Of a stretch of DNA of 64,000 bases, positions 14,434-51,105 are shown one piece after another; the first letter of the stretch is position 1, and each line of letters opens with the position of its first letter. Made by a program: the position numbers and the translations under genes. Below the pieces are notes generated by a model, which ran no database searches, was not told where the DNA came from, and worked only from the letters and a program-made list of their open reading frames with translations. Location of the stretch: IMG/VR virus record IMGVR_UViG_3300027770_000050, positions 1 to 64,000 of that record; one strand, 5' to 3'. Source of the DNA: a virus.

Positions 14434-14456
14434 AATAATCACCCCCTTCTTAACGT

Positions 14457-14489: not shown

Positions 14490-14530
14490 ACACTATAATA
14501 TTATACCTGTTATCAGAGAATACCTTTTGC

Positions 14531-14558: not shown

Positions 14559-14583
14559 GAAATTACCTTTGGAGGAGGAAGCC

Positions 14584-14937: not shown

Positions 14938-14954
14938 ATGTATAATCCTATATT

Positions 14955-24955: not shown

Positions 24956-25567
24956 CTACAGGATGCGATCAGCTACACTATAAAGACCATAAAAATCCAA
25001 ATTACGTGCTAATTTTACCATGTTCTTGAGTTTTAGTGAAGCCATTGGCATTCCACCAGGAGCTCCTCCAGCTTGTTCTTTAGATTTATTTTTAGCAAAA
25101 CCAAATGACAGAAACTTAACCGCGTTAGCCATATCATCAAGTTCAATTTCTAAATCAATCAAACTTTGTCCAAATGGCAGTCTTTCCCATCTACTTTTAT
25201 CTGTGGCATTAATTTCTTCATCGGTAATTTCATTGCCTTCTTTCCTTTTACCGGAATGACCGTCTTTAACTCCACCTTCATCATCCCCGCCATACATTTT
25301 CCAAATTTTATTTGCAATTTCTCTTTCGTTAAATTGCAATTCTTCCATGAGCATTTTTTCAATTTCAGCATCAGCAAGTATAAGTCCCAAATTGGACAAT
25401 GGTTCTTTGATTGCTTTTTGATTTGAGCTTGGAGTTGCTCCTGGAGGTGGTGGCATCCCTGACATACCTGGAAGTCCTGGTAAAGGAGGTAATGAAGGCA
25501 TAGGTGCTCCCAATCCTGGTGGGGGTAAAATACCAGGAGGAGCAGCTATTTTTAAAAATTTGGACAT
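24956..25567 (-). CDS. Proline-rich hypothetical protein with a K-x-A tag and a C-terminal helical motif
   Basis: MSKFLKIA followed by a Pro/Gly tract; C-terminus MVKLARNLDFYGLYSVADRIL. Confidence 0.7.
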   Translation of the reverse strand: MSKFLKIAAPPGILPPPGLGAPMPSLPPLPGLPGMSGMPPPPGATPSSNQKAIKEPLSNLGLILADAEIEKMLMEELQFNEREIANKIWKMYGGDDEGGVKDGHSGKRKEGNEITDEEINATDKSRWERLPFGQSLIDLEIELDDMANAVKFLSFGFAKNKSKEQAGGAPGGMPMASLKLKNMVKLARNLDFYGLYSVADRIL

Positions 25568-26046
25568 TATCTTGAATGACCGCTTAGAGAATCAGTTTTA
25601 TGAGTGCCTCTTCCTGGAGTTTTAAAGACATCTGGAGATTGCTCAGCATTTTCAAAAGTTACTTCTGAAAAACTTTCTTCGTCTTCGTCAAATTCAAGCG
25701 CTTCTTTCAATCCTTCCGGATTGAGTATATCCATGTTGCCAAAACTTGATTTAGCAGATGACGCAACTCTCTTAATTAATTGCATAGGAGATAATCCTCT
25801 GCCATCAACATATCCATATGAAAAGTCATCTTCCCAAGTTTCTAGAACACTCATTGATTGTAACAAAGCATCAGTCAAGTATGCTTCAACTTGCCTTGAA
25901 CTTGTTTTTGTTAATTTTCTGGAGTTATATTTTTTATTTATAATTGCTGAAGCAGTTGCTATGATTTTAGCTGTCTCATCGTAGTTGTGTGCTTCGGGAG
26001 CAATTTCTTCCAATAGTGTATGAAGTTGAGCTTCTAGATTATGCAT
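25567..26046 (-). CDS. Hypothetical protein
   Basis: 159 aa, TAATG coupling to the next gene, upstream AAAGG-N18-GAAA. Confidence 0.7.
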   Translation of the reverse strand: MHNLEAQLHTLLEEIAPEAHNYDETAKIIATASAIINKKYNSRKLTKTSSRQVEAYLTDALLQSMSVLETWEDDFSYGYVDGRGLSPMQLIKRVASSAKSSFGNMDILNPEGLKEALEFDEDEESFSEVTFENAEQSPDVFKTPGRGTHKTDSLSGHSR

Positions 26047-26108
26047 ATTTTATCTCTCTTGATAAATTGTTATTATATTTTTTCAAATACGAAATGCTTT
26101 TACCTTTA

Positions 26109-29100
26109 CTAATCTTTTACTGTTTTGTATTCAGATTTGAATCTAAGGTTACGCACTTGACCATTTGTTGTAATATTATTTGCAGAAAGAATCGCAACAG
26201 ATGGTGTTTTTACAGCTATACCAAATATTTTACTTCGTGATGTTTGTTCAATACCTAGTTTTGCATTACCAATATTTATGGCATTGGAATAACCAGCTTT
26301 AAGAGTTTGCCAGGTTTCAGGAGAGCTATCGTAAGCTTCCGTTGTAGTATTAACCCAATCTATATTAGTTGTGTCTAATGTATATTCAGTCAATACTGTA
26401 TTTGACAAAAATGCTGGTAAAGGTAATTTTATTCTAAAATTATCTTCTGAATAAGTATTGCCACTACTTACTCTTACTGTGATTTGCGGTTTTACTTCAA
26501 CGCTAGTATCTAAATCTGTAGATCTTGACCAAACATTTGATGATCCAATGCTTGCTACATAATAGATACCATTTTGCGTCTTGTTGCTTTGATCTTTAAG
26601 TAAAACACGATCAAATTTTTCTAAAGTTACACCGTCTAATGTTGCTGGAGGATTTGTCAAAATTATGTTAGCGGTTGATGCAGCAACTACGTCACTTAAA
26701 AATGAATTGTTATTGACCTTTGCAAAATAAATAGGAGTAACACCTATTCCTGGGGATGAAATTGTTTCATCGTAAATCAATCCGTAATAACCAGATGAAG
26801 TATTTCCACCTAATACATTAACTTTTTTAGTAAGTGAAATTTGATTATCTAAAATTAAATCACTATGTCTTGTAAGATAAAACAAAGCACTTTCATCAAC
26901 AAAATAAATGCCATTTTGTTTATTGTTTGTTTGGTCCTTAAGTAATACTCTGTCACCTATTTGAACATTAGATATGTTTACAGCTAATCCTAATGCTTGA
27001 TTTTGTGTAGAAGCAAAAGAACACAAAGTATAGTTTGTCAGGTAATTTTGTTGGAAAAATTCAACATTATGTGTTCCAACAGTTGCAGTAGAAGGATTGA
27101 AATATGTTTCGTAAAATTTATTTGTGTTTGCATCTTTGACGAACAAACTTGCTATGGAAAATTGTGTTGTACTACTACCCGTACCAACTCTTATAAGGTT
27201 AGGTTGAGATACTTGCTTTACTCTTGCTACATATCTTTCAGCTTCAGAAGTTTGTCCTAAGAATAAGACTTTGTCTCCATCAGTCACTCCTATTCCGTTA
27301 ATTATGTCAGGTATTGAAGTAAATCCAGAATAATTTGCAGTAGAAACTCCAACAACATCTATTGTGAATTCAGAACCTAATTGTTTCCAGAATAGTGGAG
27401 TATTGAGAGCTGAGGAACCTAAATTATAAGCGCTACTATCTTCAGGAATATTTAATTCAAAAATTCTATTGTCATATGAAACTCTTCCAAGTTCATAAAG
27501 TTCATTAGTAGCATTTAAGTCAGGTGCTCTTTCTATTGTCCAGGTATAGTTTTGAACTGCTGTATATATGCCATTTTTAGTTGTATCTGTTTGGTTTTTA
27601 AGTAGTATTTTGTCACCAAATTGTACTGTGTAACTATCAATAATTGCTGTGCTAGCAATTCCAGATCCTTCGGGTATATATGTAAATGGAGTCAAGACAC
27701 CTTGGTAAGAAATATTATTTGGGTCTGGAATATTTCCTGTTGAACCAACGGATGTATTATAAATTGTTCTTGTTGAAATATCAATCCACGACCTAGAAGA
27801 AGTAGATTTGAATGAGCTTGTTGGATCAAAATACAAGCAGAAAGTTCCGTATCCTGCTGAGTTTTGAACACTTGCGTAAACTGCACTGAAATTATTTCCA
27901 GCAAATACAGATGTACCAGCTAATCCTACTGTAGCATATTCTGAACGTACAAATTTATATATTTTTTGATCTTTTTTACCTGTTTTATCATGAACAACTA
28001 AAGAGTTTTTGTCACTATAATATGAAGATTGATATCCACTATCAATAATTTTATCTGCATACGAAGTTGTTGGCTTGTTTGTTAGGACTAAAACATTACT
28101 ATCAGTTGAAAAAGCTATTCCACTATACCAAGTATTATCTAGTGTAGCAGCAGTTCCAGAGTTTGTAATTTTTTGTAAATATAAAGAACCAGTGTATATT
28201 CCTAAAGTATTTCTTGTAACTGGATCTGCAGCTACATCTGTAAATTTAGATGTATTACCAGAACCTGATTTAACATAGTATCCATCTGAAGACAGTCTCT
28301 GAGTAAAGAAATATTCTGTATTTGATGATGATTCAAAAATATTATGAATATGAGAACTATAGTTTTTATTTGCAGAATAAGATTTTATCCACGAACTTCT
28401 GTCCCTATTGTATTTCTTTTCTGTTGTAGTAGATGTTCCAGCACTGTTAACAATTTGGAAATATGCTCCGTCTTCAACCAAGTTTGCTGAAAGTTTTGCA
28501 GTAGTAGTAAGTAGATTGCTTCTGTAAGTTAGTGCTTGTGGTAAGTAATAATATCTATTAAATAATTGTTTCGGATCTTCATTGTATTTTGGAACTGAAG
28601 TATCTGTGTATAGATACATGTAAAGTGTTCCAGTCCATCCAGTTCCAGAAATTGACAATAAGCCATTTTTAGCATCAATAGTAAAGTTAGTATTTAAAGT
28701 TCTGGAGACGATTGTTCCCCCAGTTGACACTACATAAACATCTGCTAAAGCATCTGGATATTGTTTTTTATCCCATGTAAATCTTGTTGTTGGAGTTTCT
28801 GGTCTAGCTAAATATATAGTAGATCCAGTTGCAGAATATCCCACTAATCTTTTTGTAAAATCAAGGTATCCGTTGACTGAATTATATTTTACTTTTCTGA
28901 GATAATAATTGAAATTATTATCAATATGAACTATTTGATAAACACCACTAGTTGATTTTCTAACTGTATTATTATATAAATCTTCATTAGCAGAGTAATA
29001 GAAAACTCTATCACCAAGAGCATAATAATAGTTATTTAAATCACCAGAAACTGTACTGAAAAGTTGAGTTCCATTTCTTTTAACAATTACAATATCGTTA

Positions 29101-31928
29101 CTTACAGTATCAAGAGTTGTATTTGCTTCAAGAGTGTGTTGGATTGGAGCAATTTTAGGAAACTTACTTAAGTTTAAGAAATCAGAAGAAAGTCTTATTT
29201 CACTATCTAATGTATATGTTTCGGAACCTGCATTAAGTACAGTTTCAAGATCTTCAGAGATATATGAAGTTCCAGTCAAACCTGCTCTTACTCCAACTTC
29301 TGCTTGCATATAAGTTCTGTCATAGCTGAAAGTTGAACCAGCTGCGACATATCCATAATTGATATTGACTAAAGTTGGTCTTTCGTAAGGAGAAGCTAAA
29401 GTTTTATAATCTGAATTTGATGCGAATTTTGTGTTGAAATAAAAATCTTCATGCTGAGCGAAGTAAACACTTCCAATGTTCGTGTATACAGGTCTATATA
29501 TACCATTCTTGACATGTGTGGATGCAGCACCTGACCCAATAAATACTAAAATACTTTCATTTGATTGTAATGTACTTGTGCCACTGCCAGTTTTAGATCT
29601 TACAAGACTTGATACAGCTGTTCCAGCTGTTGTTGGAAATCCTGAATCTGTAGCTGAATAATAGATTGCTCTTACATTATATTTTTGAAAATCTTGTTCT
29701 TTCCAATCAATATCAATTTCTTGAATGAATGATGAAGATTTGCCATCTATGCCAAAGAAATTTTCATAGTTTGCTGTTGATGAGAATGAAATTTCTGGAA
29801 CAAAAATTTCACCATAGTGAGTAGCTGCAATTGAACTTGCTTGATAAACACCTGATAATTGTTTCTTTAAATTAGGAGAAACATAGTAAGTTCCATCTGT
29901 ATTAGTTGTAAGAACATTTGTTAAAATATCTTTTGACCAGTTGACTAATCCATCTGCAAAATCAAATACTCTTTTTGATGAGCTTCCAATAGATGATACT
30001 GCGTATATTCCATTGTTGAGTTGATTTGAGGAGTTGACTAGAACTGTCATTCCTATACTGACAGGAACATCAAAATCTCCAGGCATAATATAACTACCCG
30101 TAGAATTTCCCGTAGACGCTTTGCAGATTACAGTAGGAGCAGATGTGATATTTACAAATGTTACTCCTATAGATCCAGCAGAAGTGTTTGACCCTAATGC
30201 ATACAAGAAATATGAAGTACCAGCACCAACAGATCCATTAGAGACAGTTATTAATGCTCCTCTTTCAATACTGTAAGTGCTTGAAAATTCAAGACCTTTT
30301 ATAGTTTCACAAAGAGCTGAAACACTGTAAATGCCATTTTGTGATGGATATGTTGTTTGTCCGGAAACTAAAATTCTTTGCGAAACTCCAATTCCTGGAT
30401 CTGCAAAAATTGTTGAATTAACTTTTGCAAAGTCAGCAATATTTGATGTTATTATATTGGAGACTGGTTCATATGTGTAAGGATAAAATCTTTCCTGAAC
30501 TGCAATGCCATCATAGTTGATAGAAAAACTGTTAGAATAAGTAGTGTTTTTACCAAGATAAAAAATATTTCCACCAATAGAGTTGGTATAGTTAGCAACT
30601 TTTATTACAGTTTGAGAAATCTCATTTGATTGATCATAAGAAGTAGATCTAGTCCACAGGTTTGATGATCCTACGGACGTGACACTGTAAATACCGCTTG
30701 CAGCATTATTGTAATGTTTTACTAAAAGTGTATTACCAACTGTAAGAGCTGCAGTACTGCCGCTTCCAGTAGACACTATGGAAGTTGTTTGAGCAAGCAC
30801 TCCCAAGCTATTTCTAAATACTGATGTTGAACCAGAGGATACTTCGTAATAATAATCTACATTTGCACGAGAGTAATTGTAAGTAGCATTTGACCATTTC
30901 AACACAGAAGTTGAAGCAGTTCCCCCCGTAAGTCCTGAACCTGAATAAAATCTAAAGTATGCTCCGCTATATGCAACTCCTGCTGTCAACACTTGTATAT
31001 TGACATAATTATTTGCGTTGATATAACTTACAGCATTATCCCAAAAATCATCTGCAGCAACAGTGCTGCTATATGGATTGTATATAGTTGAACCATTAGC
31101 TTTATATAAGCTATTTACGCTATAAATTCCATTTTGTATTTTATTAGTTTGATCTTTAACTAAAATTCTGTCATTTAGTGCAAGAGTACGATTATCTATA
31201 GTGGCTGTTAAGCTTGATAATCCAGTTGCTGAAGATCCTAAATTTGTAGTTGTAGCAGCTTGTACGTCTGTAAGCTGATATATATTGTTTCTGCTAACAA
31301 ATAGTACTGATGTAGTTCCGTAAGCTGCTGATTGAAATGGACTTAGATATTGGCTGTAGGTAACCCATGATGAGCTTCCTACAGCTACAATCCTACCTGC
31401 TGTAAGAATATCTTCAGCATTATTAACCGTAATAGTTCCATATCCTGCAGACGAAAGAACTTTATACAATCCATTTTCTTTAGCATCTGTCTGATTTTTT
31501 ACTAGAACAATTTTATTATTGTTCATTTGCAAACCATCAACATATTTGGCTGTAGTTAATCTTGTAACTCCAGCCAATGATGCGCTCGATAAATTTGTAG
31601 TTGTTGCTACGTCTGCGTTAGGAAGATCTGTTACTGTAAATGAGTCAAAAATAGTAAATCTTATGTCAAAACCTAAGTCTTGCAAAAGTTTTACTCCGCT
31701 TGTATTTTTAATTTGTGGATAATTCTGATCAGTGTAAATATCAGCAAATTCGTTTTCTATCCAAATTTTGACATCTTCTACACTAGAGTTTATCCACTTT
31801 AGTCTAAATAATTTTTTGTTCCAAGTTCCAGAAACATTTGTACCAAACCCAACACTAGACACTTCTCTATATGTTTCTAAACTTGGAGTTGAGGAATTTA
31901 TTTCAGACCAAATAAAAGCGTGTGACAT
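26109..31928 (-). CDS. Giant repetitive virion protein with about 10 copies of a tail-associated module
   Basis: Repeated (A)ATT.N.....(I/L)DG..L...D(R/K)(V/I)L(L/V)K(D/N)Q....NGIY.V......W.R..D; 1939 aa; S/T/N/G-rich. Confidence 0.75.
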   Translation of the reverse strand: MSHAFIWSEINSSTPSLETYREVSSVGFGTNVSGTWNKKLFRLKWINSSVEDVKIWIENEFADIYTDQNYPQIKNTSGVKLLQDLGFDIRFTIFDSFTVTDLPNADVATTTNLSSASLAGVTRLTTAKYVDGLQMNNNKIVLVKNQTDAKENGLYKVLSSAGYGTITVNNAEDILTAGRIVAVGSSSWVTYSQYLSPFQSAAYGTTSVLFVSRNNIYQLTDVQAATTTNLGSSATGLSSLTATIDNRTLALNDRILVKDQTNKIQNGIYSVNSLYKANGSTIYNPYSSTVAADDFWDNAVSYINANNYVNIQVLTAGVAYSGAYFRFYSGSGLTGGTASTSVLKWSNATYNYSRANVDYYYEVSSGSTSVFRNSLGVLAQTTSIVSTGSGSTAALTVGNTLLVKHYNNAASGIYSVTSVGSSNLWTRSTSYDQSNEISQTVIKVANYTNSIGGNIFYLGKNTTYSNSFSINYDGIAVQERFYPYTYEPVSNIITSNIADFAKVNSTIFADPGIGVSQRILVSGQTTYPSQNGIYSVSALCETIKGLEFSSTYSIERGALITVSNGSVGAGTSYFLYALGSNTSAGSIGVTFVNITSAPTVICKASTGNSTGSYIMPGDFDVPVSIGMTVLVNSSNQLNNGIYAVSSIGSSSKRVFDFADGLVNWSKDILTNVLTTNTDGTYYVSPNLKKQLSGVYQASSIAATHYGEIFVPEISFSSTANYENFFGIDGKSSSFIQEIDIDWKEQDFQKYNVRAIYYSATDSGFPTTAGTAVSSLVRSKTGSGTSTLQSNESILVFIGSGAASTHVKNGIYRPVYTNIGSVYFAQHEDFYFNTKFASNSDYKTLASPYERPTLVNINYGYVAAGSTFSYDRTYMQAEVGVRAGLTGTSYISEDLETVLNAGSETYTLDSEIRLSSDFLNLSKFPKIAPIQHTLEANTTLDTVSNDIVIVKRNGTQLFSTVSGDLNNYYYALGDRVFYYSANEDLYNNTVRKSTSGVYQIVHIDNNFNYYLRKVKYNSVNGYLDFTKRLVGYSATGSTIYLARPETPTTRFTWDKKQYPDALADVYVVSTGGTIVSRTLNTNFTIDAKNGLLSISGTGWTGTLYMYLYTDTSVPKYNEDPKQLFNRYYYLPQALTYRSNLLTTTAKLSANLVEDGAYFQIVNSAGTSTTTEKKYNRDRSSWIKSYSANKNYSSHIHNIFESSSNTEYFFTQRLSSDGYYVKSGSGNTSKFTDVAADPVTRNTLGIYTGSLYLQKITNSGTAATLDNTWYSGIAFSTDSNVLVLTNKPTTSYADKIIDSGYQSSYYSDKNSLVVHDKTGKKDQKIYKFVRSEYATVGLAGTSVFAGNNFSAVYASVQNSAGYGTFCLYFDPTSSFKSTSSRSWIDISTRTIYNTSVGSTGNIPDPNNISYQGVLTPFTYIPEGSGIASTAIIDSYTVQFGDKILLKNQTDTTKNGIYTAVQNYTWTIERAPDLNATNELYELGRVSYDNRIFELNIPEDSSAYNLGSSALNTPLFWKQLGSEFTIDVVGVSTANYSGFTSIPDIINGIGVTDGDKVLFLGQTSEAERYVARVKQVSQPNLIRVGTGSSTTQFSIASLFVKDANTNKFYETYFNPSTATVGTHNVEFFQQNYLTNYTLCSFASTQNQALGLAVNISNVQIGDRVLLKDQTNNKQNGIYFVDESALFYLTRHSDLILDNQISLTKKVNVLGGNTSSGYYGLIYDETISSPGIGVTPIYFAKVNNNSFLSDVVAASTANIILTNPPATLDGVTLEKFDRVLLKDQSNKTQNGIYYVASIGSSNVWSRSTDLDTSVEVKPQITVRVSSGNTYSEDNFRIKLPLPAFLSNTVLTEYTLDTTNIDWVNTTTEAYDSSPETWQTLKAGYSNAINIGNAKLGIEQTSRSKIFGIAVKTPSVAILSANNITTNGQVRNLRFKSEYKTVKD

Positions 31929-31946
31929 TATTTATCAACCATTTAA

Positions 31947-33314: not shown

Positions 33315-33360
33315 ATTATTGGTCTCCTCGCATTTTTGTTGATATTATAATCACAGTATT

Positions 33361-33388
33361 CTTTTCTTTTTTATGCTTGGTGAGCCCT
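33361..33388 (-). promoter_or_regulatory. Putative phage promoter AGG-N19-GAAAAG
   Basis: Minus strand TAGG-gctcaccaagcataaaaaa-GAAAAG upstream of phoH. Confidence 0.5.
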
Positions 33389-33389
33389 A

Positions 33390-34394
33390 CTAAAAAGGCA
33401 AGTCTGGTTTATCTGATACAGCTTTTATAATCTTATGTTTATCAATATTATCAATAAAATCAGCTGCATTTTCATTCATTGTGGTTTCAAATTTTCTAAT
33501 ATTAAAAATTTGGTCTAGTTGTGACTTGTCAAATTCTTTTAATTTATCTGTTTCCATCCACTTTGTTTCAGTCACATTTGCAAGATTTTTATTTAATTTA
33601 TTTAGTTTGCCGTCTTTAAAAAGTAAAAGATCTCCCGATAATAAACTGTCTAAATAACTATGCGCATTATCAAGATTAGTTGTTTCAAGAAGATTTTGAT
33701 CGTTATATAAAACTTTAGTAATGCTAGCATTGGTCAAGATATTTCCCGTAGGACTTAGTACTTGTGTATTATCTCTTACAAAACACAAACTAGCTTTTGG
33801 TATACAAATATAAATCTTAAATGGTAATGCATGTTCTACATCAGAACTATCTGACAATCTTAGAACTTCATTTTCATCATTTACTATTGATATTACAAGT
33901 TTTGATTTGTTATCTGTATTCTTGATTACAAAATCCCATTCATAGTTGTGCTCATTAGAAGTTGGATAAAATGCTGGTACTAAATTTAATTCTTCTTTTC
34001 TTTCACATAATTTCAAAAATAAACTAAATCCAATGCTATCTTCTGGAGTACCTTTGCGATATGTTCCTACTTTACTCCAATCAACATCAAAATCACTTTC
34101 TAAGCTTCCAATAGTAAATTCATCAAAGAAACCTTGATCATAAATTTTTTTTAGAATTGGATCTTCAAGTATTCTTCTAGCTCTAACAATATCCAAAAAC
34201 GCTTCATTAGACCCACCAAAATCAGGGTGACATTTTCTAGCTCTTTTTCTAAAAGCACTTTCTAGTATTTGAGAAGTCTTAACTCTCTCATCTCTAGATT
34301 TACCACTTGGCAAATCAAGTTTATCAATATCTAAAATCTCATAATAATTCTTATTGAAATCGATTATTTTCTTTGGATCAAATTCATTTGACAT
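33390..34394 (-). CDS. J-domain protein (type III DnaJ-like) with unknown C-terminal domain
   Basis: NYYEIL...AFRKRARKCHPDFGGSNEAF...ARRILEDP..KKIYD. Confidence 0.85.
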   Translation of the reverse strand: MSNEFDPKKIIDFNKNYYEILDIDKLDLPSGKSRDERVKTSQILESAFRKRARKCHPDFGGSNEAFLDIVRARRILEDPILKKIYDQGFFDEFTIGSLESDFDVDWSKVGTYRKGTPEDSIGFSLFLKLCERKEELNLVPAFYPTSNEHNYEWDFVIKNTDNKSKLVISIVNDENEVLRLSDSSDVEHALPFKIYICIPKASLCFVRDNTQVLSPTGNILTNASITKVLYNDQNLLETTNLDNAHSYLDSLLSGDLLLFKDGKLNKLNKNLANVTETKWMETDKLKEFDKSQLDQIFNIRKFETTMNENAADFIDNIDKHKIIKAVSDKPDLPF

Positions 34395-34422
34395 AAGAGT
34401 TTTATAAAGATTTAAAGAATAA
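34395..34422 (+). promoter_or_regulatory. Putative phage promoter AAG-N19-GAATAA
   Basis: AAG at 34395-34397 and GAAT at 34417-34420, 9 nt before the ATG of the first MWY gene. Confidence 0.55.
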
Positions 34423-34429
34423 AAATAAT

Positions 34430-34909
34430 ATGTGGTACAAATTTGCTCAGACTCATCCTTATATTGAAAAAGCTATAGATAGATTTAATCTAACAAAGGA
34501 TCCTAATAAAGCTGGATATGTATTATCTGACGGTAAGATGTTGGATTTTTCAGATGGTCATGATGTCAGAGACCTTACTCATGACAGTGTTTTTGAAGTC
34601 ATGCCTATAATGCCAGATATAGAAGATGGATATACAAATTTTCATAAACAATATGTTGTTCCATTTATGCAAAGCACTGATAGTATAAGAATTTCTAAAG
34701 ATGGAAATGACTTAAGCGTTGAAATACACACAATTCCATCTAAAGAACAAATAATCGCTATACAAAAAAGTATAAACAAAGGTGACAATTTCTTTTACGA
34801 AATACCTATGCTTCCAAATGATCCTGGTGGCGCAATATATGATACTAATCCATCATATATTGGAAAATGGTTGACAGATATCAAAAACGTCATGATTGGA
34901 AAAAAATAA
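34430..34909 (+). CDS. Hypothetical protein, MWY-tag family
   Basis: Starts MWYKFAQ; contains KAGYVLSDGKMLDFS. Confidence 0.75.
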   Translation: MWYKFAQTHPYIEKAIDRFNLTKDPNKAGYVLSDGKMLDFSDGHDVRDLTHDSVFEVMPIMPDIEDGYTNFHKQYVVPFMQSTDSIRISKDGNDLSVEIHTIPSKEQIIAIQKSINKGDNFFYEIPMLPNDPGGAIYDTNPSYIGKWLTDIKNVMIGKK

Positions 34910-34910
34910 C

Positions 34911-35381
34911 ATGTGGTACAAAACTGCTCTCAAGGGACATAAAACTTACTATGATTTCAATGATCTTAGTTATGAATTGAAACAAGTTTCTGACACTGAT
35001 GATAGTGATTGGAAGCATTCTGGAACAAGAATGAGAATAATATCATATGTCTTAAATGCATATGATTTAGAACATATGGATAAAGATAAACCAGTTGGGA
35101 AAATGCATTTAGACTTAGATTTCTATAGTTCTGGTAAAAAACAAATATATATCAAATTAGTCAGAACTGATGATTACCATGAAGGGATGGGTGTAGCTTC
35201 TAATCTTTATAAATGGCTTAAATATAATTATGAGAATTTTGATAAACCAGAATATTTAGTTAGTAATCCAATCAATCCAGCCGCAGAAAGAATTAGAGAA
35301 AAAATATTAGGAAAACCTCAAAGTTTGTATCCTATGCGTGAATATGATTTAGATTATTCTCAAGGAAAATTGGATATTTAA
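34911..35381 (+). CDS. MWY-tag protein with a possible GNAT-like fold
   Basis: In-frame ATG 34911 gives MWYKTA. YHEGMGVASNLY resembles the acetyl-CoA-binding loop of GNATs. Confidence 0.6.
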   Translation: MWYKTALKGHKTYYDFNDLSYELKQVSDTDDSDWKHSGTRMRIISYVLNAYDLEHMDKDKPVGKMHLDLDFYSSGKKQIYIKLVRTDDYHEGMGVASNLYKWLKYNYENFDKPEYLVSNPINPAAERIREKILGKPQSLYPMREYDLDYSQGKLDI

Positions 35382-35807
35382 ATGTGGTATCGAGAAGCAG
35401 TAACATATAATCTCCTTGGTCAACTCACCGAAGGTAATCCAAAGAAAAAGATTATTAAACAATTTGTTGATGATGAAATTGATGATCTCAATATTGAAGA
35501 TCAACAAGATGATCAAACTGAGGAACCCACTCAAGAAGCACCAGAGTTTACTCCAGTTCCTACTAATATTCCCCCAGCAACAGACACACCTGCTGGAGTT
35601 GCAAATAGAGAACCAATTCAAGTTCAACTACCAGCTAATTTTAAAGTTCCACCATTGCATGAATTTTGTCATTGTGAAATAAATACATTGCCTAGCGGAA
35701 GACAAATTTGGAAACTTGGCAATGGGGAAATGCACTGCTCAGAATGTGTTATGAATAGAGATTTGTTTAACAGATCAAATGAATTAGCTTACAGAAATAT
35801 TACGTAA
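35382..35807 (+). CDS. MWY-tag protein with a minor-head-protein-like Cys/His motif
   Basis: Starts MWYREA. PPLHEFCHC resembles the PPxHPNCRC motif of Mu gpF/SPP1 gp7-type proteins; also HCSEC. Confidence 0.6.
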   Translation: MWYREAVTYNLLGQLTEGNPKKKIIKQFVDDEIDDLNIEDQQDDQTEEPTQEAPEFTPVPTNIPPATDTPAGVANREPIQVQLPANFKVPPLHEFCHCEINTLPSGRQIWKLGNGEMHCSECVMNRDLFNRSNELAYRNIT

Positions 35808-36390: not shown

Positions 36391-36989
36391 AAAATTATTT
36401 GATCTACAATTGTTTGATTTATATACTTTTCAGATAATCCCCAAGTATTTTTCCAATAATCTATTATTTTATTTTTTCTTGAAATTAAAAAATTAGTTTC
36501 GTGAATTCTTTTTGGTATATTCGTATCTTTTATTAACTTTGTTTTTTCTAAACTTCTTGTTTTGTAGAGATTAAAAATTTTGTCTGTGAATTTTTCATCA
36601 TTTTCTTCAATATACTTAAATAAATAATCTTCACTGTATGGATTTGTTCTGACGTGATCATGCAACATCACACAATCTGGATAATAATTATCAATTACCG
36701 AATTAATATGATCTAAAATAGTATTCTTTTTGTTTTTTGGTAATAAAAAAATATCTATAGGTTTTAAGTTTATTTTTTTCAAGTTGGCTTCGTTTTGTTT
36801 TTTAAATACTAGATAATTAAGTTCGTGAGATTTAATTATTAAATCTTCTGAATCAAAACACTTACAAAAAATAAACCAAGGACAATCTTCGCATCCTAAT
36901 AAAAATGCTCTCAAACTGATTAATATTTCTATTTTATCAAGTTGAGAGCATTCAGTTATTTTTTTACTGATCTCAAGTATTGTGTTCAC
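36387..36989 (-). CDS. Hypothetical protein (very AT-rich)
   Basis: 200-aa ORF, GTG start, operon packing. Confidence 0.6.
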   Translation of the reverse strand: MNTILEISKKITECSQLDKIEILISLRAFLLGCEDCPWFIFCKCFDSEDLIIKSHELNYLVFKKQNEANLKKINLKPIDIFLLPKNKKNTILDHINSVIDNYYPDCVMLHDHVRTNPYSEDYLFKYIEENDEKFTDKIFNLYKTRSLEKTKLIKDTNIPKRIHETNFLISRKNKIIDYWKNTWGLSEKYINQTIVDQIIL

Positions 36990-36995
36990 TTCTCA

Positions 36996-37283
36996 TCATT
37001 TTTCTTTGAACATCTCGCTGACTTTCTTTTCAATTAATGGCATCAATTCTAAACCTGGTGCTGCATTTCTTACATTACCAAAAGTTTGATATTCTTCTAT
37101 TAGCATATCTCTAAATCTTGCGAGATATCTACTCACCATTATGTCAGTGGGATTGTATATACGCTTTTGTAAAAAAAGTTTCATCAAAATAACTTTTTTA
37201 GCATCTGACATTATGATTTTTTCTTCATAATCTGGAAAACTTTTGTCATCTTTATCTTTTCTATTTAAAGCTTGATACCACAT
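36996..37283 (-). CDS. Hypothetical protein, MWY-tag family
   Basis: Starts MWYQAL; 95 aa. Confidence 0.7.
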   Translation of the reverse strand: MWYQALNRKDKDDKSFPDYEEKIIMSDAKKVILMKLFLQKRIYNPTDIMVSRYLARFRDMLIEEYQTFGNVRNAAPGLELMPLIEKKVSEMFKEK

Positions 37284-37284
37284 A

Positions 37285-37518
37285 TTATTTTTCTATCTTC
37301 AAGTCTTGTACGTGAATTTCATTGTAGGCAAAAGCTACATTTTGGCTTGGAACGTTGAATAAACATATTGACATTTTCTCATCTTTGTAAATAGTATAGA
37401 AATCTTTATTTACAATAAGAACTCCTTCAATATGTCCAATTAAGGTATTTGGATTGTAAGTTTGAATCTTCCATTTTCCAAATCCTCTATTTTGTGAATT
37501 ATTATCAATAATTGCCAT
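37285..37518 (-). CDS. Hypothetical protein
   Basis: 77 aa; SD GGAGGAG. Confidence 0.7.
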   Translation of the reverse strand: MAIIDNNSQNRGFGKWKIQTYNPNTLIGHIEGVLIVNKDFYTIYKDEKMSICLFNVPSQNVAFAYNEIHVQDLKIEK

Positions 37519-37599
37519 ATCTCTCCTCCAGATATCTATAGTATTATTTTATTCGACACTTATTTCCTACCTAGATGTATAATAAAAATAGGTAAATAT

Positions 37600-38967
37600 A
37601 TGTCAAAAAAGTCCCTTGCCAAAACAGTATGTAATTTTTGTGAACGTCCAGCTAGTAAAGAAGTTATCACAGATATTGAAGTATTAAGCGAATTATTGAC
37701 GGGTAAAAGCTTAAATATTTCTTTATGTACTTTTTGTTTTCAAAGTTATCTTGCTGGAAATAAATTTGGACAGATGCAAGTACATCAAAACATTCTTTCT
37801 ATGATTATAAACGCAGATGAAAAAGCTAGTGTTTTGTCTCTCAAAGAAAGGATCGCTGAAGTTGCTCCTGTATCTAAAAGACATCTTTTTGGTTTAAATA
37901 ATTACAGACTGAAGAATACTAGTCCACACGAGCTTTATGAGGCTTTGGAGAAAAAAGTAGTTGGACAAGATTTAGCTAAGAAAAGATTAAGTATTGCTGT
38001 TTACGAACACATAAGAAATATTATCAATGAAGATGTTTCAGAAAAGCAAAATATTTTGTTCCTTGGTCCTTCTGGTAGTGGAAAAACATTAATTGTAAAT
38101 ACAATCTCAAGTCACTTAGAAGTTCCATTTGTTTCTGGAGATGCAACTTCTTTTTCTCCAACTGGTTTTCAAGGTAGTGATGCTGATAGCTGTATTACTG
38201 ATCTTTTAATCAAAGCTAATGGTGAAACATCTTTAGCTGAAAAAGGTGTTGTTTTTATTGATGAAATTGACAAATTGGCTTCATCTCATAATTCTGCAAC
38301 AAGATTAGAAAGTTTTCATTATTCTACTCAATCAACATTGTTAAAGTTAATTGAAGGCAAAAAAGTAAAGATAAATCCAAATGCTCTGGGTGAACAAACA
38401 ACATTCCCTTACGTTGTAGACACTTCTAAAATCTTATTTTGCTTTGGTGGAGCGTTTAATCATTTAGAGAAAATTGTAGCTAAAAAGTTAGGTTTATCTG
38501 AAGGCTCAATTGGTTTTAGAAAAAATAATAAGTTAGAATACGAAAACCAAATAAAAAACTATGAAATTTACAACAATGTCTCACACGATGTTCTTGTTGA
38601 AAGTTTAATTGAATATGGATTAGCTACTGAATTTGTTGGAAGATTGCAGTCTATAGTTCCTCTTGTTCCATTATCTAAAGAACAAATGCTATATTGTTTG
38701 AAAGATTTAGATAATTCTCCAATAAAGAAAACTATTTTATTGTTTGCTGAATCAAATGTAGAAGTTGAATTTGATGAAAAATATTTTGATGCAGTTGTAG
38801 AAAAAGCTATTAAGTCTGGAACTGGAACTAGAGCTCTTAATTCAATTGTTAAATCATCAATTTCACAAGCAGCTTTTAGTTTATTAGGAAAAGTTAACTC
38901 AAGCAGGAAGCATATTGTTTTAACAGAAAAATGCGTTTCTAATCCTAATGAATATTTGACACTTTAA
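37600..38967 (+). CDS. clpX: ClpX-like AAA+ unfoldase
   Basis: N-terminal CNFC...CTFC zinc domain, VVGQDLAK, Walker A GPSGSGKT, Walker B FIDEIDK, GGAF, IGF loop, EFVGRL and sensor GTRAL. Confidence 0.92.
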   Translation: MSKKSLAKTVCNFCERPASKEVITDIEVLSELLTGKSLNISLCTFCFQSYLAGNKFGQMQVHQNILSMIINADEKASVLSLKERIAEVAPVSKRHLFGLNNYRLKNTSPHELYEALEKKVVGQDLAKKRLSIAVYEHIRNIINEDVSEKQNILFLGPSGSGKTLIVNTISSHLEVPFVSGDATSFSPTGFQGSDADSCITDLLIKANGETSLAEKGVVFIDEIDKLASSHNSATRLESFHYSTQSTLLKLIEGKKVKINPNALGEQTTFPYVVDTSKILFCFGGAFNHLEKIVAKKLGLSEGSIGFRKNNKLEYENQIKNYEIYNNVSHDVLVESLIEYGLATEFVGRLQSIVPLVPLSKEQMLYCLKDLDNSPIKKTILLFAESNVEVEFDEKYFDAVVEKAIKSGTGTRALNSIVKSSISQAAFSLLGKVNSSRKHIVLTEKCVSNPNEYLTL

Positions 38968-38995
38968 AGGATTAGAGCATCTTGAGTTTGAATTA
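38966..38995 (+). promoter_or_regulatory. Putative phage promoter AAAGG-N19-GAATTA
   Basis: AGG at 38968-38970, GAAT at 38990-38993, ATG at 39005. Confidence 0.6.
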
Positions 38996-39004
38996 TATAT
39001 TATT

Positions 39005-40066
39005 ATGACTGATCCACTAGAACAAATAATTTTACAAGCTGAAAAAATTGTTAAAGAAAATAATAAAGTTTATCAGTTTACTAAGATATCTCAATCTCAA
39101 ACAGCTTTTGCAATAAGAGCGAGAAATACAGCTGGTGATTTTACTTCATTTTTGACAGTAAGAGGAACTTCCGATGAAGCTAGCTGGGAAAGAGCTTTTT
39201 ATGGTCAAGGTTGGATGGATGTAAATGTTCATCCAACACTATTGACAGGATCAATTACAATAGCATCAGTACCATCAGCAGCCACTACTCCAGGAGATGC
39301 AGCGTTTACTCAAAGATCTTTTTCAGGAACTGCAACATCAGTTTCGGTTAAGCCATTCAAAAATTTCGATCCATTATTTTCTGTTCCAGGAATTGGACTG
39401 AGACGCTTCACTCCTGTTGCACACACCCCAACAACTCCATATGGTGTAAGTAGTTCTGATAATGATATTCAATTATACTTTATGGGATTGAGTAACGATC
39501 AAAAATACGAAATGAGATGGGAAGGTGGTAATTTTATGAGTTGGTGGAATGAAAGAGCAGCAAGAGCCGCTGCCCCTTCAAATTCAACTAGTCATCCACA
39601 TTCTGTTCCTCAATCTCCAGAAGCAGTTGCTGCATTTGCTCAAAAAATTCCTTTTAAGCGAGTTCCAGGATATGACGAATTCTTGAAATTAATGAGAAAA
39701 GTCAAGAGTGGAACTGGAGCTACGGCATTAGATATATTACCTGATGAAGCTCTAATTGATGAATATGAAAGCAGAACAGGCAACACAGTCCAAACTGTTT
39801 TTGCACTAGGTAGAGAGCGAATTATGAAGTTTAGGGATTACGATAGACCTATAATGATAAAATCACTCGAAAATTTACGATCTGCTTTAAAAGTTCAAGA
39901 GGATTATGAAACAGCTCAAAGTGCAGAAGATAGAATTGATGAAGATGCCAAAGGTCGAGCAGATACTTTCAAAAATAAAGTAAATGAAATTACCGGATTG
40001 GCAGGTGGTTTTTTAGGAGCTATTTCTGACGAAAAAAACCGCATAAAGGGAGATTATAGACCATGA
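39005..40066 (+). CDS. Hypothetical protein (candidate internal virion protein)
   Basis: 353 aa; N-terminal segment ending FTKISQ. Confidence 0.7.
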   Translation: MTDPLEQIILQAEKIVKENNKVYQFTKISQSQTAFAIRARNTAGDFTSFLTVRGTSDEASWERAFYGQGWMDVNVHPTLLTGSITIASVPSAATTPGDAAFTQRSFSGTATSVSVKPFKNFDPLFSVPGIGLRRFTPVAHTPTTPYGVSSSDNDIQLYFMGLSNDQKYEMRWEGGNFMSWWNERAARAAAPSNSTSHPHSVPQSPEAVAAFAQKIPFKRVPGYDEFLKLMRKVKSGTGATALDILPDEALIDEYESRTGNTVQTVFALGRERIMKFRDYDRPIMIKSLENLRSALKVQEDYETAQSAEDRIDEDAKGRADTFKNKVNEITGLAGGFLGAISDEKNRIKGDYRP

Positions 40067-40737
40067 AAAAAGAAGCAATATATCCTGGTGGTAGAGCAGC
40101 ATTTGTTCGTCAACTTCTTAATGCAACTTTAAATCCTCAAGCAATGTCTGATTTTTTCACTAAACCTGAAGGGTTTCAAAGAATGTTAGATTTGGGATTT
40201 ACCAACTGGGCAAGCTTAGCTACAGCTTTAGGTGGACATGACTACAAACCTCAAGAAATGGTTGGTATGCAAGAAAATCCTGGATATAGAATACCGGGTT
40301 TAGACCCAGCAGCAGAAACAGACTTAGCTGCTGGAGGTTTTGATTACTTAGGTCCTCACTCTCCTACTGTTCCATCTTCAACACCACGCCCTTCTGGAAT
40401 TGCACCAGAACCTGATCCTGATGTTTATTATGAAAAATTAGGGTCAGGAAATAAAAAGTTTAGATTAGCAAATCAACCTACTCCTGAACAACCAGCCCAA
40501 GCTGAAACATCAAAACCTCCATTACCAGGTTGGACTTTTGAAGATTTAGTTGCTTCTTTGAAAAAAATTGAACGGTCTCAGCAATTATCAGAGGAAGCTA
40601 AGGTTCAAAATTATAAAAGAATACTTGATGAATATAGTAGTAGCATGCGTCCATTGAGAAATTGGTTGTCTCAAAATGGTATTTCTTCACAGCAGTTAAA
40701 AGGCATAGCAAATGAAGCTGAGAAAAGACGTAAATAG
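40063..40737 (+). CDS. Hypothetical Pro-rich protein (candidate internal virion protein)
   Basis: 224 aa, ATGA overlap; MKKEA and internal KFRLAN. Confidence 0.7.
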   Translation: MKKEAIYPGGRAAFVRQLLNATLNPQAMSDFFTKPEGFQRMLDLGFTNWASLATALGGHDYKPQEMVGMQENPGYRIPGLDPAAETDLAAGGFDYLGPHSPTVPSSTPRPSGIAPEPDPDVYYEKLGSGNKKFRLANQPTPEQPAQAETSKPPLPGWTFEDLVASLKKIERSQQLSEEAKVQNYKRILDEYSSSMRPLRNWLSQNGISSQQLKGIANEAEKRRK

Positions 40738-41617
40738 TTTATTAAAAATATCCGATAAACTTGATAAAGAAGGTAAATATACACTTGCTGACAGTGTATT
40801 TAATTTGCTTAAAATTTCTCAGTTTTCTCCAACTCCAACACAGTTGCCAACTACACAAGTTAATTTACCTGAAAGCTTGAGACCATTCTTGAGTCCAGAC
40901 ACATTTCAGGATAGCGTATTAGTTAATAAAAATGTTATGAGGCAAGTAGATGCTCCGTACGCAAGCAAGTTTGGTCCTGATACTCCATTAATTTTCAATA
41001 CATTAACTCCAACTCAATATGCTCAATTAGAAAGCTCAGGAAACTTACAAAAAATACTTGACATACAAAGTGCTCAAGGTGCTGCTGCTCTTAAATATTT
41101 AGCTTCAACAGGAGCTGATGTTCAAGGATTAGGAGCTTTAATTGGACAATGGTCTAAAGCTCCTAATCAAAATAATAAAGTTGTTGTTGAAAATGCTATT
41201 GCAACTTCAGTGTCTCAAGCAGTTGTTGATGGTTTGTCAGCCATAACAACCAACAGAAATAAATTTAATTTCAATGAATGGCAAATGAGATTGAACGAAA
41301 TATCTGGACAAATAAATAGATATCCACCAACTTTAGCTTCAGCAATATCCCAGGGAATCAACACGGGACTTAGAAGACAAATAAATAAGTTGTCAACTCA
41401 AAATCCTGATGTTTTGAGAAGATCTATTTCTCCATCCAACCCTGACTGGATGTCATTTGCTAGTACACATGGTTTGTCAAGCTTTACATCACAGTTTGGT
41501 TCAGGTCCAGTTCCTGCAGCTGTACCGAAACCAGCAACTAAACCAGGAGCACCAACAACTCCAGACACAGAAGCTACTCCTGGGAATAAACCTATTTCTG
41601 GAGAACCAGCAGTATAA
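40712..41617 (+). CDS. Hypothetical protein with N-terminal helical motif (candidate internal virion protein)
   Basis: LLKISDKLDKEGKYTLADSVFNLLKISQ; Q/N/P-rich. Confidence 0.7.
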   Translation: MKLRKDVNSLLKISDKLDKEGKYTLADSVFNLLKISQFSPTPTQLPTTQVNLPESLRPFLSPDTFQDSVLVNKNVMRQVDAPYASKFGPDTPLIFNTLTPTQYAQLESSGNLQKILDIQSAQGAAALKYLASTGADVQGLGALIGQWSKAPNQNNKVVVENAIATSVSQAVVDGLSAITTNRNKFNFNEWQMRLNEISGQINRYPPTLASAISQGINTGLRRQINKLSTQNPDVLRRSISPSNPDWMSFASTHGLSSFTSQFGSGPVPAAVPKPATKPGAPTTPDTEATPGNKPISGEPAV

Positions 41618-41641
41618 TCTTATTGACTGTATAAAATATGC

Positions 41642-42409
41642 ATGTCAGATTTATGCCCTTTATATTTACAAGAAAAAAGCTGTCTCTTAAAATTAGTTTC
41701 AAATTCTACAATTACTTCAGTTTTATCTAAAATAGACCTTGAAGTGATTAACAATACTTGGAACCTTGATTGTGAAGGCAGCTTGTCTAATTGTAGTTTT
41801 AAAAGTCCAAGTGAGCAAGTTTTTCAAAATGTAGAACCTGAGAAACCTGTTGTAGAAGAGGAAAAACCAGAAACAAAAATTCCTCAAGAAACTACTAAAG
41901 TAAGTATTCATATTGTTAAGAATCCATATCTAGTAAAATCTGATGTTCTTTTTTATCCTACCAATATAGCTTTAACAATTGACGATCCATTGTTGATGAG
42001 ATTATCATTTGGAAAAATTCAAGAAGAATGTGATACTTTCAAGAAGCCATACAAAATGGGCACTTTGTATATCACTTCTAATGGTGGAGAAAATTCTAAA
42101 GTACAAGCCAAACATGTTTATCATTTAACAGTCTCAGGTGTAAGTAGATTAGTTAATGAGGGAGATGTAAAGTCTGCTTTGAGAAAAGCTTTAGATATGG
42201 CAGACACAAATAACGCTAGAAATGTTGTCATGCTCCCTGCAGATTGCGGAACTCATGACATAAATGACATTGCTAGAGTACAGCTATCTTCTATCAAAAC
42301 TTATTTATCAACACATAAAAATTGCAAAATAAAAAACGTTTTTATTGTAATGGAAGACAAGGAAAGCTATCAAGTGTTCGAAGAATATTATAATAGAATT
42401 TTTGATTGA
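41642..42409 (+). CDS. Macrodomain-like protein with Cys-rich N-terminus
   Basis: DVLFYPTN, G.IQEEC, GTLYITSNGG, AKHVYHL, VVMLPADCG and IKNVFIV follow the macro (Appr-1''-p) fold order. Confidence 0.7.
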   Translation: MSDLCPLYLQEKSCLLKLVSNSTITSVLSKIDLEVINNTWNLDCEGSLSNCSFKSPSEQVFQNVEPEKPVVEEEKPETKIPQETTKVSIHIVKNPYLVKSDVLFYPTNIALTIDDPLLMRLSFGKIQEECDTFKKPYKMGTLYITSNGGENSKVQAKHVYHLTVSGVSRLVNEGDVKSALRKALDMADTNNARNVVMLPADCGTHDINDIARVQLSSIKTYLSTHKNCKIKNVFIVMEDKESYQVFEEYYNRIFD

Positions 42410-42423
42410 GGTAGTTTGCACTT

Positions 42424-42768
42424 ATGGAAAATAATGAAGAATACGCAAGTCCATCGAAACTACTGATGGGCATTTTAGATACTTTTATAGCTCCTACTTG
42501 TATAGTAGATGATTGTGATAACTGTATTATGAATGAATTGGCTAAAGAATTATACGATAAAGGTTTTGATGTTCCCGGATATTCTTTACGTACTAAAAAT
42601 GGTTCAACATCAACATTTTTTCATAAAGGTAAAAAGTATTTTATCAATAAAAAAGATATGAACCACGGTACAAAAAGTTTTTTATGCACTATTGAACTTG
42701 AAGATGAAACTATTTTAAAATTGAAAAAATCTTCTGATAAGTTGAAAGAAGTTCTTAGTGTCCTCTAG
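42424..42768 (+). CDS. Hypothetical protein (weak PAS-like start)
   Basis: ILDTFIAPTCIVD...MNELAKEL; SD GAGG. Confidence 0.55.
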   Translation: MENNEEYASPSKLLMGILDTFIAPTCIVDDCDNCIMNELAKELYDKGFDVPGYSLRTKNGSTSTFFHKGKKYFINKKDMNHGTKSFLCTIELEDETILKLKKSSDKLKEVLSVL

Positions 42769-42777
42769 GGTAGCCTC

Positions 42778-43236
42778 ATGCAAGAAGAAAATAACATTGG
42801 GATAGAGCAACTTAAAAGCGTCTACAAAGCACATACTGAAGCGTACCTTGATTTCAATATGGCTTTGATCAATATTATATCTAATCAAAAAGAATTAATA
42901 AGTAAAGTTGAAACTCTCAAGTCTATTTCAGATGAAGAGTTTAGAAATCTTGCTAAAGAATATGCTGTTTTAGAAAAATTATTTGAAAACTTCCAATCAA
43001 CTCAATTAAAAAGAGACAATGAATTAGAAGAAGTACAAGTTGAATATACTGCTCAAATTTCAAACTTTGGAACAGATATTGAAGAAGTAAAATCTGAGTT
43101 AAAGCAGATGAAAAAAATCTATTGGGATATTAAAAACAATATCAACAAAGCATGGTGGACTATTGGTGGAGTTATAGCTTTCTTAACTGCTATCCAATTA
43201 ATTACTGGTAAAGGTATTGTAGATTTTCTAAAATAA
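42778..43236 (+). CDS. Coiled-coil protein with C-terminal TM anchor
   Basis: Heptad-rich E/K/Q body; terminal hydrophobic segment AWWTIGGVIAFLTAIQLITG. Confidence 0.7.
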   Translation: MQEENNIGIEQLKSVYKAHTEAYLDFNMALINIISNQKELISKVETLKSISDEEFRNLAKEYAVLEKLFENFQSTQLKRDNELEEVQVEYTAQISNFGTDIEEVKSELKQMKKIYWDIKNNINKAWWTIGGVIAFLTAIQLITGKGIVDFLK

Positions 43237-43466
43237 TGCCAACTGTAACCTGTGCTTGTGAAATATGCGGAAAGTTATATTACTCTAAAGATGAGTTGTA
43301 TCTTCCAGCAATGAAAAATGGATATAGATTTTCACGCAAAGATAAGACACTAAAAACTTGGGAAGATTGGATAATACACGTATCAAGTCACTGCGAAGAA
43401 TGCAGGTTAAAAGAAGTACCTGAAAGTTGCGAACTTGATAAACTTAAATACAGAAAATTAATCTGA
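43236..43466 (+). CDS. Small zinc-finger protein
   Basis: CEICG...HCEEC; TAATG coupling. Confidence 0.65.
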   Translation: MPTVTCACEICGKLYYSKDELYLPAMKNGYRFSRKDKTLKTWEDWIIHVSSHCEECRLKEVPESCELDKLKYRKLI

Positions 43467-43766
43467 AACTAATTCTGTAAATACTGAAGGAAGCTTAGAT
43501 AGCGTAGCTTCAGAACTATTTGGATCTTCAAGTAACTCATGAAGCATCCCACCAACAATTTTTTCCAATTCAGCAACTACTTCTGGATCATTGAAAATTT
43601 CGTTTGCTGTCATACTGGAATTTTCTCCAGGAGCTTCTTTTTGCTGTTCGGGATTTTGTTGAATTTCAGGTGTTTGCTCAATAGCATCAACAAGGTTATT
43701 AGCTTCATCTTCAAACCCATTTTCAGCTAAATTTTTTACTATTTGTGCTAGCTTGTATATATTCAT
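43458..43766 (-). CDS. Acidic hypothetical protein with K-x-A-Q tag and helical motif
   Basis: MNIYKLAQIVKNLAENGFEDEANNL. Confidence 0.65.
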   Translation of the reverse strand: MNIYKLAQIVKNLAENGFEDEANNLVDAIEQTPEIQQNPEQQKEAPGENSSMTANEIFNDPEVVAELEKIVGGMLHELLEDPNSSEATLSKLPSVFTELVSD

Positions 43767-51104: not shown

Positions 51105-51105
51105 G

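Follow-up and report, generated by a model that had tools for sequence, protein, structure and literature searches.

In phage T4, a conserved terminal tag, the capsid-targeting sequence (CTS), is described on diverse internal proteins (IPI–III and Alt); it encapsidates its carriers into the scaffolding core, and the head protease removes it (PMC3012670, PMC5694885). In PMC5694885 the CTS is given as 10–20 residues long and always N-terminal. The same source describes inner-head proteins of SPN3US, phiKZ and 201phi2-1 with N-terminal propeptides that are thought to target the prohead. These propeptides are 20 to >100 residues long, are common to paralogues and end in (S/A/G)-x-E, and the paralogues gp53 and gp54 are identical in their first 15 residues (PMC5694885). 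Here we describe a predicted helix-turn-helix module at the ends of proteins encoded by the virus record IMGVR_UViG_3300027770_000050 from IMG/VR. The stretch analysed, called the window below, is the first 64 kb of this single 86,315-bp record. An original prediction, made from the letters of the window, had proposed that one helical motif is reused on three unrelated proteins (A, B and a third protein). Two copies, those of A and B, are confirmed, and the third is plausible and very divergent.

Like the T4 CTS, the module is found on diverse proteins; the genes of its carriers belong, in phage-G-like contigs, to head clusters, and its N-terminal copies often end in a short conserved motif. 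It differs from the CTS in that it is 30–35 residues long, is a predicted hairpin, can be at either end or internal in up to four copies, and has no sequence similarity to the CTS. Unlike the propeptides of giant phages, it is a discrete unit on unrelated proteins from many phage lineages. In scaffolding proteins (P22 gp8, and the 80alpha scaffold and SaPI1 CpmB, which have one C-terminal motif), a short terminal helical hairpin or helix that binds the coat follows a flexible region and docks the protein inside the capsid shell. Protein A is similarly predicted to have a C-terminal hairpin after a flexible segment, whereas the module at large is also N-terminal and multi-copy. Encapsulin cargo-loading peptides are short extended terminal tags that load enzymes, ferritin-like ones included, into an HK97-fold shell. 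Some carriers of the module are ferritin-like as well, but the module is a hairpin and no encapsulin context was seen around it.

The three proteins and their copies of the module are listed below, with open reading frames (ORFs) numbered by position in the window (HMM, hidden Markov model; AF2, AlphaFold2).

24956–25567, minus strand: protein A, 203 aa, with the C-terminus ...NMVKLARNLDFYGLYSVADRIL
24959–25042, minus strand: shortened C-terminal copy of the module on protein A, residues 176–203 (broad HMM, AF2)
40712–41617, plus strand: protein B, 301 aa, with the N-terminus MKLRKDVNSLLKISDKLDKEGKYTLADSVFNLLKISQ
40712–40822, plus strand: canonical copy of the module at the N-terminus of protein B, residues 1–37 (helix 2–19, turn 20–22, helix 23–37), with the KISQ end at 40811–40822
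43458–43766, minus strand: third protein, 102 aa, acidic, with the N-terminus MNIYKLAQIVKNLAENGFEDEANNLV
43677–43766, minus strand: possible copy of the module, highly divergent, at the N-terminus of this acidic protein, residues 1–30 (profile-profile comparison)

In the ORF list, the three peptides lie where the original prediction placed them, and an all-against-all BLAST of the genome's 60 ORFs agreed that the three carriers are otherwise unrelated. The A–B motif alignment scored 20.4 bits over 23 residues in this comparison, and 62 other short alignments reached 20.4 bits or more (1545 pairs with any hit). When HMMs were run on the 1563 six-frame segments, one built from family A alone did not find B at E<20, and one built from family B alone reached A only at E=7. 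The raw A–B similarity is at chance level, and thus the finding is indistinguishable from chance if this genome's sequence is taken alone. A broad profile built from the module at large matched exactly two places at E<5 in the 86-kb genome, which were B (E=1.7e-11) and A (E=2.3e-7). With the relatives of A and B taken out (18 copies removed, 190 kept), the profile's match to B had E=1e-11 and that to A had E=3.3e-3; each was in the correct register, and there was no other match at E<5. The value for B is partly circular because short B-type fragments stayed in the 190-copy profile.

The third copy was missed by every HMM tried, and MAFFT aligned it out of register. The 44 homologues of the third protein have the consensus KLAQIVKNLAENGFExEADxLvDAI, and most orthologues read EAD at the position of EAN in the window, so that the family (...NGFExEAD...) reads nearer the module consensus. 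When the N-terminus of this family (38 rows) was compared with the module profile by hhalign, the probability was 84% (P 7e-6, score 24.3) in the register originally proposed, and none of 197 column shuffles reached 24.3 (maximum 17.4). The claim of a motif shared by three proteins therefore stands for A and B on the evidence of the broad profile, while the third copy is a plausible divergent relative. The first eight residues of the third protein, MNIYKLAQ, also resemble the short MWYKFAQ-type tags encoded nearby.

The reuse of the module on unrelated proteins is borne out on a much larger scale by the kind of check first suggested for it, a profile search for further copies. A search profile (A4; 38 positions, 12 copies) was run against 1.84 billion cluster representatives and matched 193 of them at E<=1e-3, with 4 at E<=1e-10. 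From 148 fetched hits among these 193, we counted 250 copies at a domain E<0.1, with 95 N-terminal, 32 C-terminal and 123 internal. One copy was found in 67 proteins, two in 56, three in 17, four in 5 and none in 3, so 78 of the 148 proteins carry two to four copies. The consensus of the 208 non-TPR copies (TPR, tetratricopeptide repeat) is IKKLIKLANKLDKKGLYKLADKIDNLIKIA, which is frequently followed by [AS]Q. Among 192 copies, chosen by a pattern that fixes the turn Gly and restricts three other positions, the conserved residues upstream of this Gly are Leu at −11 (67%), Lys at −9 (64%), Leu or Ile at −8 (88%), Ala at −7 (92%), Leu or Phe at −4 (95%) and Asp at −3 (98%), and those downstream are Tyr or Phe at +2 (69%), Ala at +5 (90%), Asp at +6 (85%), Ile, Leu or Val at +8 (93%) and Asp at +9 (66%). 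No entry in Pfam, NCBIfam, PHROGs or PDB covers the module. A literature search by motif strings and by topic found no description of it in the library covered, and the topic search returned the T4 and SPN3US head papers only. We regard it as very probable that the module is real and portable.

Three other identities were considered for the module from its sequence and dropped. Its loop does not have the EF-hand ligand pattern, its spacing differs from that of SAP/HeH, and a wall-binding role was set aside because two of the lysin carriers already have LysM.

The helix-turn-helix shape that had been proposed agrees with the AF2 predictions, in which hairpins bounded by disordered linkers are found in both A and B. 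Judging from these models, the module is probably a separate helix-turn-helix of about 30–35 residues on a tether. In B, AF2 with the family alignment gave helices at residues 2–19 and 23–37 with a predicted local distance difference test (pLDDT) score of 64–80, followed by about 60 residues of disorder (38–100), and the whole protein consists of the module, a disordered Pro/Thr-rich linker and a helical core. KISQ closes the N-terminal copy of B; the original prediction had placed it directly after the motif, as would suit a removable leader. B has 11 close homologues in metagenomes, and the family was widened to 24 members with identities down to about 20%. L17, D18, G21, D27, S36 and Q37 are invariant or nearly so in these members, and almost all such columns are in residues 1–37; the module is thus the best-conserved part of the family. 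The protein has no Pfam or PHROG family, and a Foldseek search of its model (mean pLDDT 57) against PDB returned nothing at E<=0.001. The B gene overlaps the end of the upstream gene by 26 nt and is the last of a run of three (39005, 40063, 40712) downstream of a ClpX-like gene, and the order ClpX, two genes, B and a macro gene is kept in relatives.

Protein A has a disordered Pro/Met-rich N-terminus (1–51), a small domain, a Gly-rich disordered linker (165–177) and the module. The helices of its copy are predicted at 176–192 and 196–202 from the family alignment. The second helix ends after 7 residues, at the end of the protein, and therefore the copy covers only positions 1–23 of the 30 in the profile. 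Metagenomes contain 222 homologues of A at E<=1e-3, and the C-terminal NMVKLAxNLDxxGxYxVADRIL is nearly invariant across the family. The gene always adjoins gyrB and a gene for a 1939-aa virion-structural-like protein, and this neighbourhood is conserved in five related loci. Protein A had no family match in Pfam, PHROG or NCBIfam, its model (mean pLDDT 63) found nothing in PDB at E<=0.001 by Foldseek, and ESM Atlas gave no usable match.

The large majority of carriers are orphans with no known domain. The Pfam domains found on the others are GH108, glucosaminidase, LysM with Hydrolase_2 (two proteins), ferritin-like (three proteins), DnaJ, AP2 and DUF5661, and four kinds of cell-wall hydrolase are among the carriers. 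In close relatives of the source phage, the neighbour of the DnaJ-like gene opens with the module and continues as a GH108 lysozyme (L007/L008) or a glucosaminidase (L010). These tagged lysins are at 101–1057 on the minus strand of L008 and 212–1138 on the minus strand of L010; the same position in the window (34430–35807) is occupied by small genes that start with Met-Trp-Tyr (MWY). The sole lysin-like gene of the window encodes an untagged SLT transglycosylase (44135–44755). One relative (G001) has two further carriers of 152 and 208 aa from other families.

A strict back-translated DNA pattern of the module was found in 26 stretches in IMG/VR, on contigs of up to 340 and 371 kb, and the larger of these (G010, 371,675 bp) is a complete record that has terminal repeats. 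A longer DNA pattern gave 12 matches in viral loci versus 1 in 185,579 prokaryotic species genomes, and the frame of the latter is full of stops. In this narrow DNA-pattern test the canonical module is virus-borne. One carrier with two copies (P0140) is labelled by NCBI as a protein of a Patescibacteria metagenome-assembled genome and its contig is 246,754 bp long. This carrier corresponds to a protein of a phage-G-like contig (G008; L053 17178–17819, minus strand), with both being 213 aa long and identical in their first 40 residues. The record of G008 carries the flag 'provirus', and its major head protein is phage-G-like; P0140 thus comes either from a giant phage that was mis-binned or from a giant prophage.

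In four phage-G-like contigs (G006–G009), the carrier genes neighbour each other among genes for the portal, head protease and major head protein. In G006 the order is portal, homing endonuclease, a 91-aa ORF, a 2602-aa multi-enzyme protein, nine genes of which seven encode carriers, homing endonucleases and the start of a long protein with a head-maturation-protease domain. In G007 a 1584-aa multi-enzyme protein is followed by eleven genes (8/11 carriers), a 1232-aa protease fusion and one more carrier. In G008, a 1156-aa protease fusion has 6–7 carriers in all around it, on both sides, and the run ends with the major head protein (phrog_2522, 1.9e-76; 53% identical to gp27 of Bacillus phage G). 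T4-like head modules encode head core, scaffold and internal proteins at a comparable place, as described in PMC5694885 and generally known. This gene context indirectly supports the originally proposed link of the module to capsid or scaffold, in contigs that belong to a different group from the source phage.

The G006 portal gene (L050 77–1840, plus strand) has an apparent LAGLIDADG homing-endonuclease or intein-like insert, and several endonuclease-VII/HNH-like genes interrupt the head gene run of this contig. The 2602-aa protein (L050 2885–10693, plus strand) combines topoisomerase IB, 2',5'-RNA-ligase/LigT and poly(A)/CCA polymerase, and the 1584-aa protein (L051 15140–19894, minus strand) combines LigD primase-polymerase and phosphoesterase with LigT. 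Such giant multi-enzyme proteins adjoin the portal gene and precede the module-tagged run in the phage-G-like contigs, and may be among the enzymes that are packaged.

Of the 86 N-terminal copies, 31 have [AS]Q at 15–16 residues past the turn Gly, as do 16 of 77 internal and 1 of 29 C-terminal ones. Within the N-terminal 45 residues of the genome's 60 ORFs, the pattern [KR]x[AS]Q was found six times versus 0.42 expected (about 14-fold, Poisson P 6e-6), and there were four in the remaining 25,466 residues. The six N-terminal sites are the following.

10216–10227, plus strand: KTSQ in the leader of a trypsin-like peptidase, residues 24–27 (...DLLIKTSQ), which resembles the module end; Trypsin_2 is at residues 63–203
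33390–34394, minus strand: DnaJ-like gene with VKTSQ within its N-terminal 45 residues (pattern scan)
34430–34450, plus strand: MWYKFAQ in an MWY gene (pattern scan)
39083–39094, plus strand: KISQ (FTKISQ) in the first gene of the B run, residues 27–30, the same tetrapeptide as at the end of the B module
40811–40822, plus strand: KISQ (LLKISQ) in B, closing the module (pattern scan)
43743–43754, minus strand: KLAQ (YKLAQ) in the third protein (pattern scan)

At the level of sequence, this enrichment would fit a common site of processing or recognition. Four ORFs of 95–159 aa start with MWY (34430 and 35382 on the plus strand, 34911 on the plus strand within the TTG-started ORF 34896–35381, and 37283 on the minus strand), versus 0.02 expected from composition, and an ORF of this kind begins at four of the genome's five ATGTGGTAY sites. 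The module had been described as distinct from this MWY tag. This holds for the sequence as such, but both elements can end in K-x-[AS]-Q, and MNIYKLAQ of the third protein can be read as either. Relatives of protein A start with MKYVKLAQ, and a short tag of the M-x-Y-K-x-A-Q type may be shared more widely.

We tentatively propose that the module is a portable docking unit that gathers its carriers into one assembly, and that this assembly is most likely the prohead interior. The unit would be a pair of amphipathic helices with a tight turn between them at the invariant Gly, like one TPR unit, and the disordered linker would tether it to the cargo of each protein. Since a lone hairpin is not expected to be stable, it would fold against a partner surface, and unrelated proteins would thereby be gathered at one assembly. 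The target inside the prohead might be the scaffold, core, portal or inner shell, with the carriers becoming part of the head or being loaded into it, much as proteins with the T4 CTS are. For N-terminal copies, a phage protease may remove the tag at K-x-[AS]-Q at the end of helix 2, cutting after K-x-[AS](-Q). We infer partner binding, the identity of the partner, the packaging of the carriers and the removal of the tag alike.

Several observations weigh against a head-docking role. No major capsid, portal, terminase or head (prohead) protease gene was recognised in the 86-kb contig; A and B are outside any recognisable head module here, and the evidence from gene context comes from another lineage. 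The A4 profile gave neither matches nor first-look candidates in the whole record of Bacillus phage G, which is weak evidence of absence, and the broad HMM found nothing at E<1 in the 40.8-kb head region of this phage. The DnaJ, AP2 and ferritin-like carriers are not classic virion proteins. The pLDDT of the hairpin is no higher than 64–80. As to the removal of a leader, 155 of the 250 copies are internal or C-terminal, and since copy A ends its protein, a removable N-terminal leader is not the whole story. Moreover, three of the six [KR]x[AS]Q sites had themselves suggested the pattern, which makes the test post hoc; for the other three versus 0.42 expected, a Poisson estimate gives P about 0.01.

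The module could instead be a general self-association unit with no link to the capsid, in which hairpins pack as four-helix bundles or stack like TPR units and so dimerise or join their carriers. A lone two-helix hairpin needs a partner, as is established for TPRs, and the presence of two to four copies on about half of the fetched hits (78/148) is in line with such pairing. Many small proteins carry two units 35–37 residues apart like adjacent TPRs (P0146, P0147, P0156, P0169, P0224 and others), and A and B carry the unit at opposite ends, as complementary partners might. However, self-association explains neither the runs of carriers inside head gene clusters nor the conserved K-x-[AS]-Q end, and we consider it unlikely.

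Docking at another hub is a second alternative to docking in the prohead. This hub might be the phage chaperone and unfoldase set (Hsp70, DnaJ and ClpX-like proteins), a host protein, or the cell envelope, with lysins positioned at the cell wall or the membrane. There are genes for Hsp70, two DnaJ-type proteins and a ClpX-like ATPase in the genome, B is two genes after the ClpX-like gene in conserved synteny, one carrier has a J domain, and the four kinds of cell-wall hydrolase point to the envelope. Against the envelope, LysM stands beside the module on two lysin carriers, so that wall binding is not needed from the module, and the module reads as having no hydrophobic stretch for membrane insertion. 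As for the chaperones, nothing ties the module to chaperone genes in the phage-G-like contigs examined. We think another hub rather improbable.

TPRs act as tandem arrays of three or more units that form a groove. The module has the same helix-turn-helix length as a TPR unit, about 34 residues, and a small/hydrophobic core pattern (A, L, G-turn, Y, A), and the residues at fixed spacing around the turn Gly (A 92%, L/F 95%, Y/F 69%, A 90%, I/L/V 93%) follow the pattern of a TPR unit. TPR units from TTC7B and from fungal TPR_10 proteins can be aligned with it, and TPRs are the only named proteins drawn by the profile. The module differs in that it is usually solitary and terminal, with a single copy in each of the three proteins A, B and the third one, and the copies in the 148 hits, unlike such arrays, are mostly far apart or in adjacent pairs only. 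No TPR family matched any of these three proteins at E<=5, and none matched multi-copy carriers such as P0142, P0146 and P0149 at E<=0.01.

A third alternative is that the module is an ordinary degenerate TPR repeat with no tag role, and that A, B and the third protein resemble each other through a common helical-hairpin pattern and not a shared function. In its favour, fungal-type TPR_10/TPR_12 proteins make up at least 12 of the 148 hits, the best PDB match is a TTC7B TPR unit (with an insignificant E=0.3), the P0137 copy is a weak TPR_2 match (E=0.0069, 16.9 bits versus a cut-off of 27), and the raw A–B similarity is at chance level. We hold it to be very unlikely, because TPR units score 6–13 bits each on the module profile versus 20–50 bits for module copies, and Pfam TPR models miss A, B and the multi-copy carriers. 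Moreover, most copies are single and terminal and adjoin disordered linkers, and neighbouring genes encode carriers in runs, unlike a TPR domain architecture.

A bolder form of head docking would be that solitary hairpins from different proteins stack in trans like TPR units and so build the internal head core or scaffold of phage-G-like and related giant phages, that each brings an enzyme or lysin of its own on a flexible tether, and that a cut at K-x-[AS]-Q frees this cargo. We hold this to be very improbable. If it were true, the module would amount to a modular cargo-scaffold that assembles itself, for which no counterpart is known to be described in phages, and one could read from sequence alone which proteins uncultured giant phages package.

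Giant phages have hundreds of orphan genes, and which of their products enter the particle or the host is an open problem. If the module is a head-loading or docking tag, it would be a searchable label for candidate virion or ejected proteins (lysins, ferritin-like and J-domain proteins, and orphans) in uncultured giant phages of several lineages. As a head-loading tag it might also be borrowed for loading foreign proteins, as has been the case with the T4 CTS. Even with no function assigned, it is a well-defined protein module for which a family model can be built now.

The source phage is probably a giant phage, and the contig is probably only one part of its genome. Close IMG/VR relatives are fragments of 103–169 kb that are 27–47% complete by CheckV, and they share a block of gyrase, A, the 1939-aa protein, PhoH and DnaJ with the window at 50–95% identity. 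When A, B, the carrier P0142 and a conserved 338-aa protein were searched by tblastn against 50,697 GenBank phage records, there was no match. The GC content of the window is low (about 0.27–0.39 in 2-kb windows). Cell-like genes encode Hsp70, two J-domain proteins, a ClpX-like ATPase, GyrA, GyrB, a PIN-PhoH fusion and MerC. A cluster of protein-handling genes, noted at 8677–16649 and 37600–38967, contains three peptidases in a row (an S8 subtilase, an S26/S24-like peptidase and the trypsin-like peptidase), a full DnaJ with J, Zn-finger and C-terminal domains, a UvsW-like helicase and Hsp70, and the ClpX-like ATPase and the second J-domain protein are elsewhere.

There are eight ORFs of 1025 to >3400 aa, at 30–8627, 26109–31928, 45588–54183 and 59844–63749 of the window and at 63753–86315 of the genome. 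Several of them have repeated PHROG domains of virion-structural, head-decoration or tail-fibre-like type, and one ends in an endosialidase-chaperone (Peptidase_S74) C-terminus. Between large fibre-like genes, eight consecutive genes encode proteins of 224–250 aa (54190–59781), and Laminin_G_3, a concanavalin-A-like lectin/glucanase domain, was found on all three of the genes tested (3/3). This run looks like a cassette of alternative receptor-binding tips.

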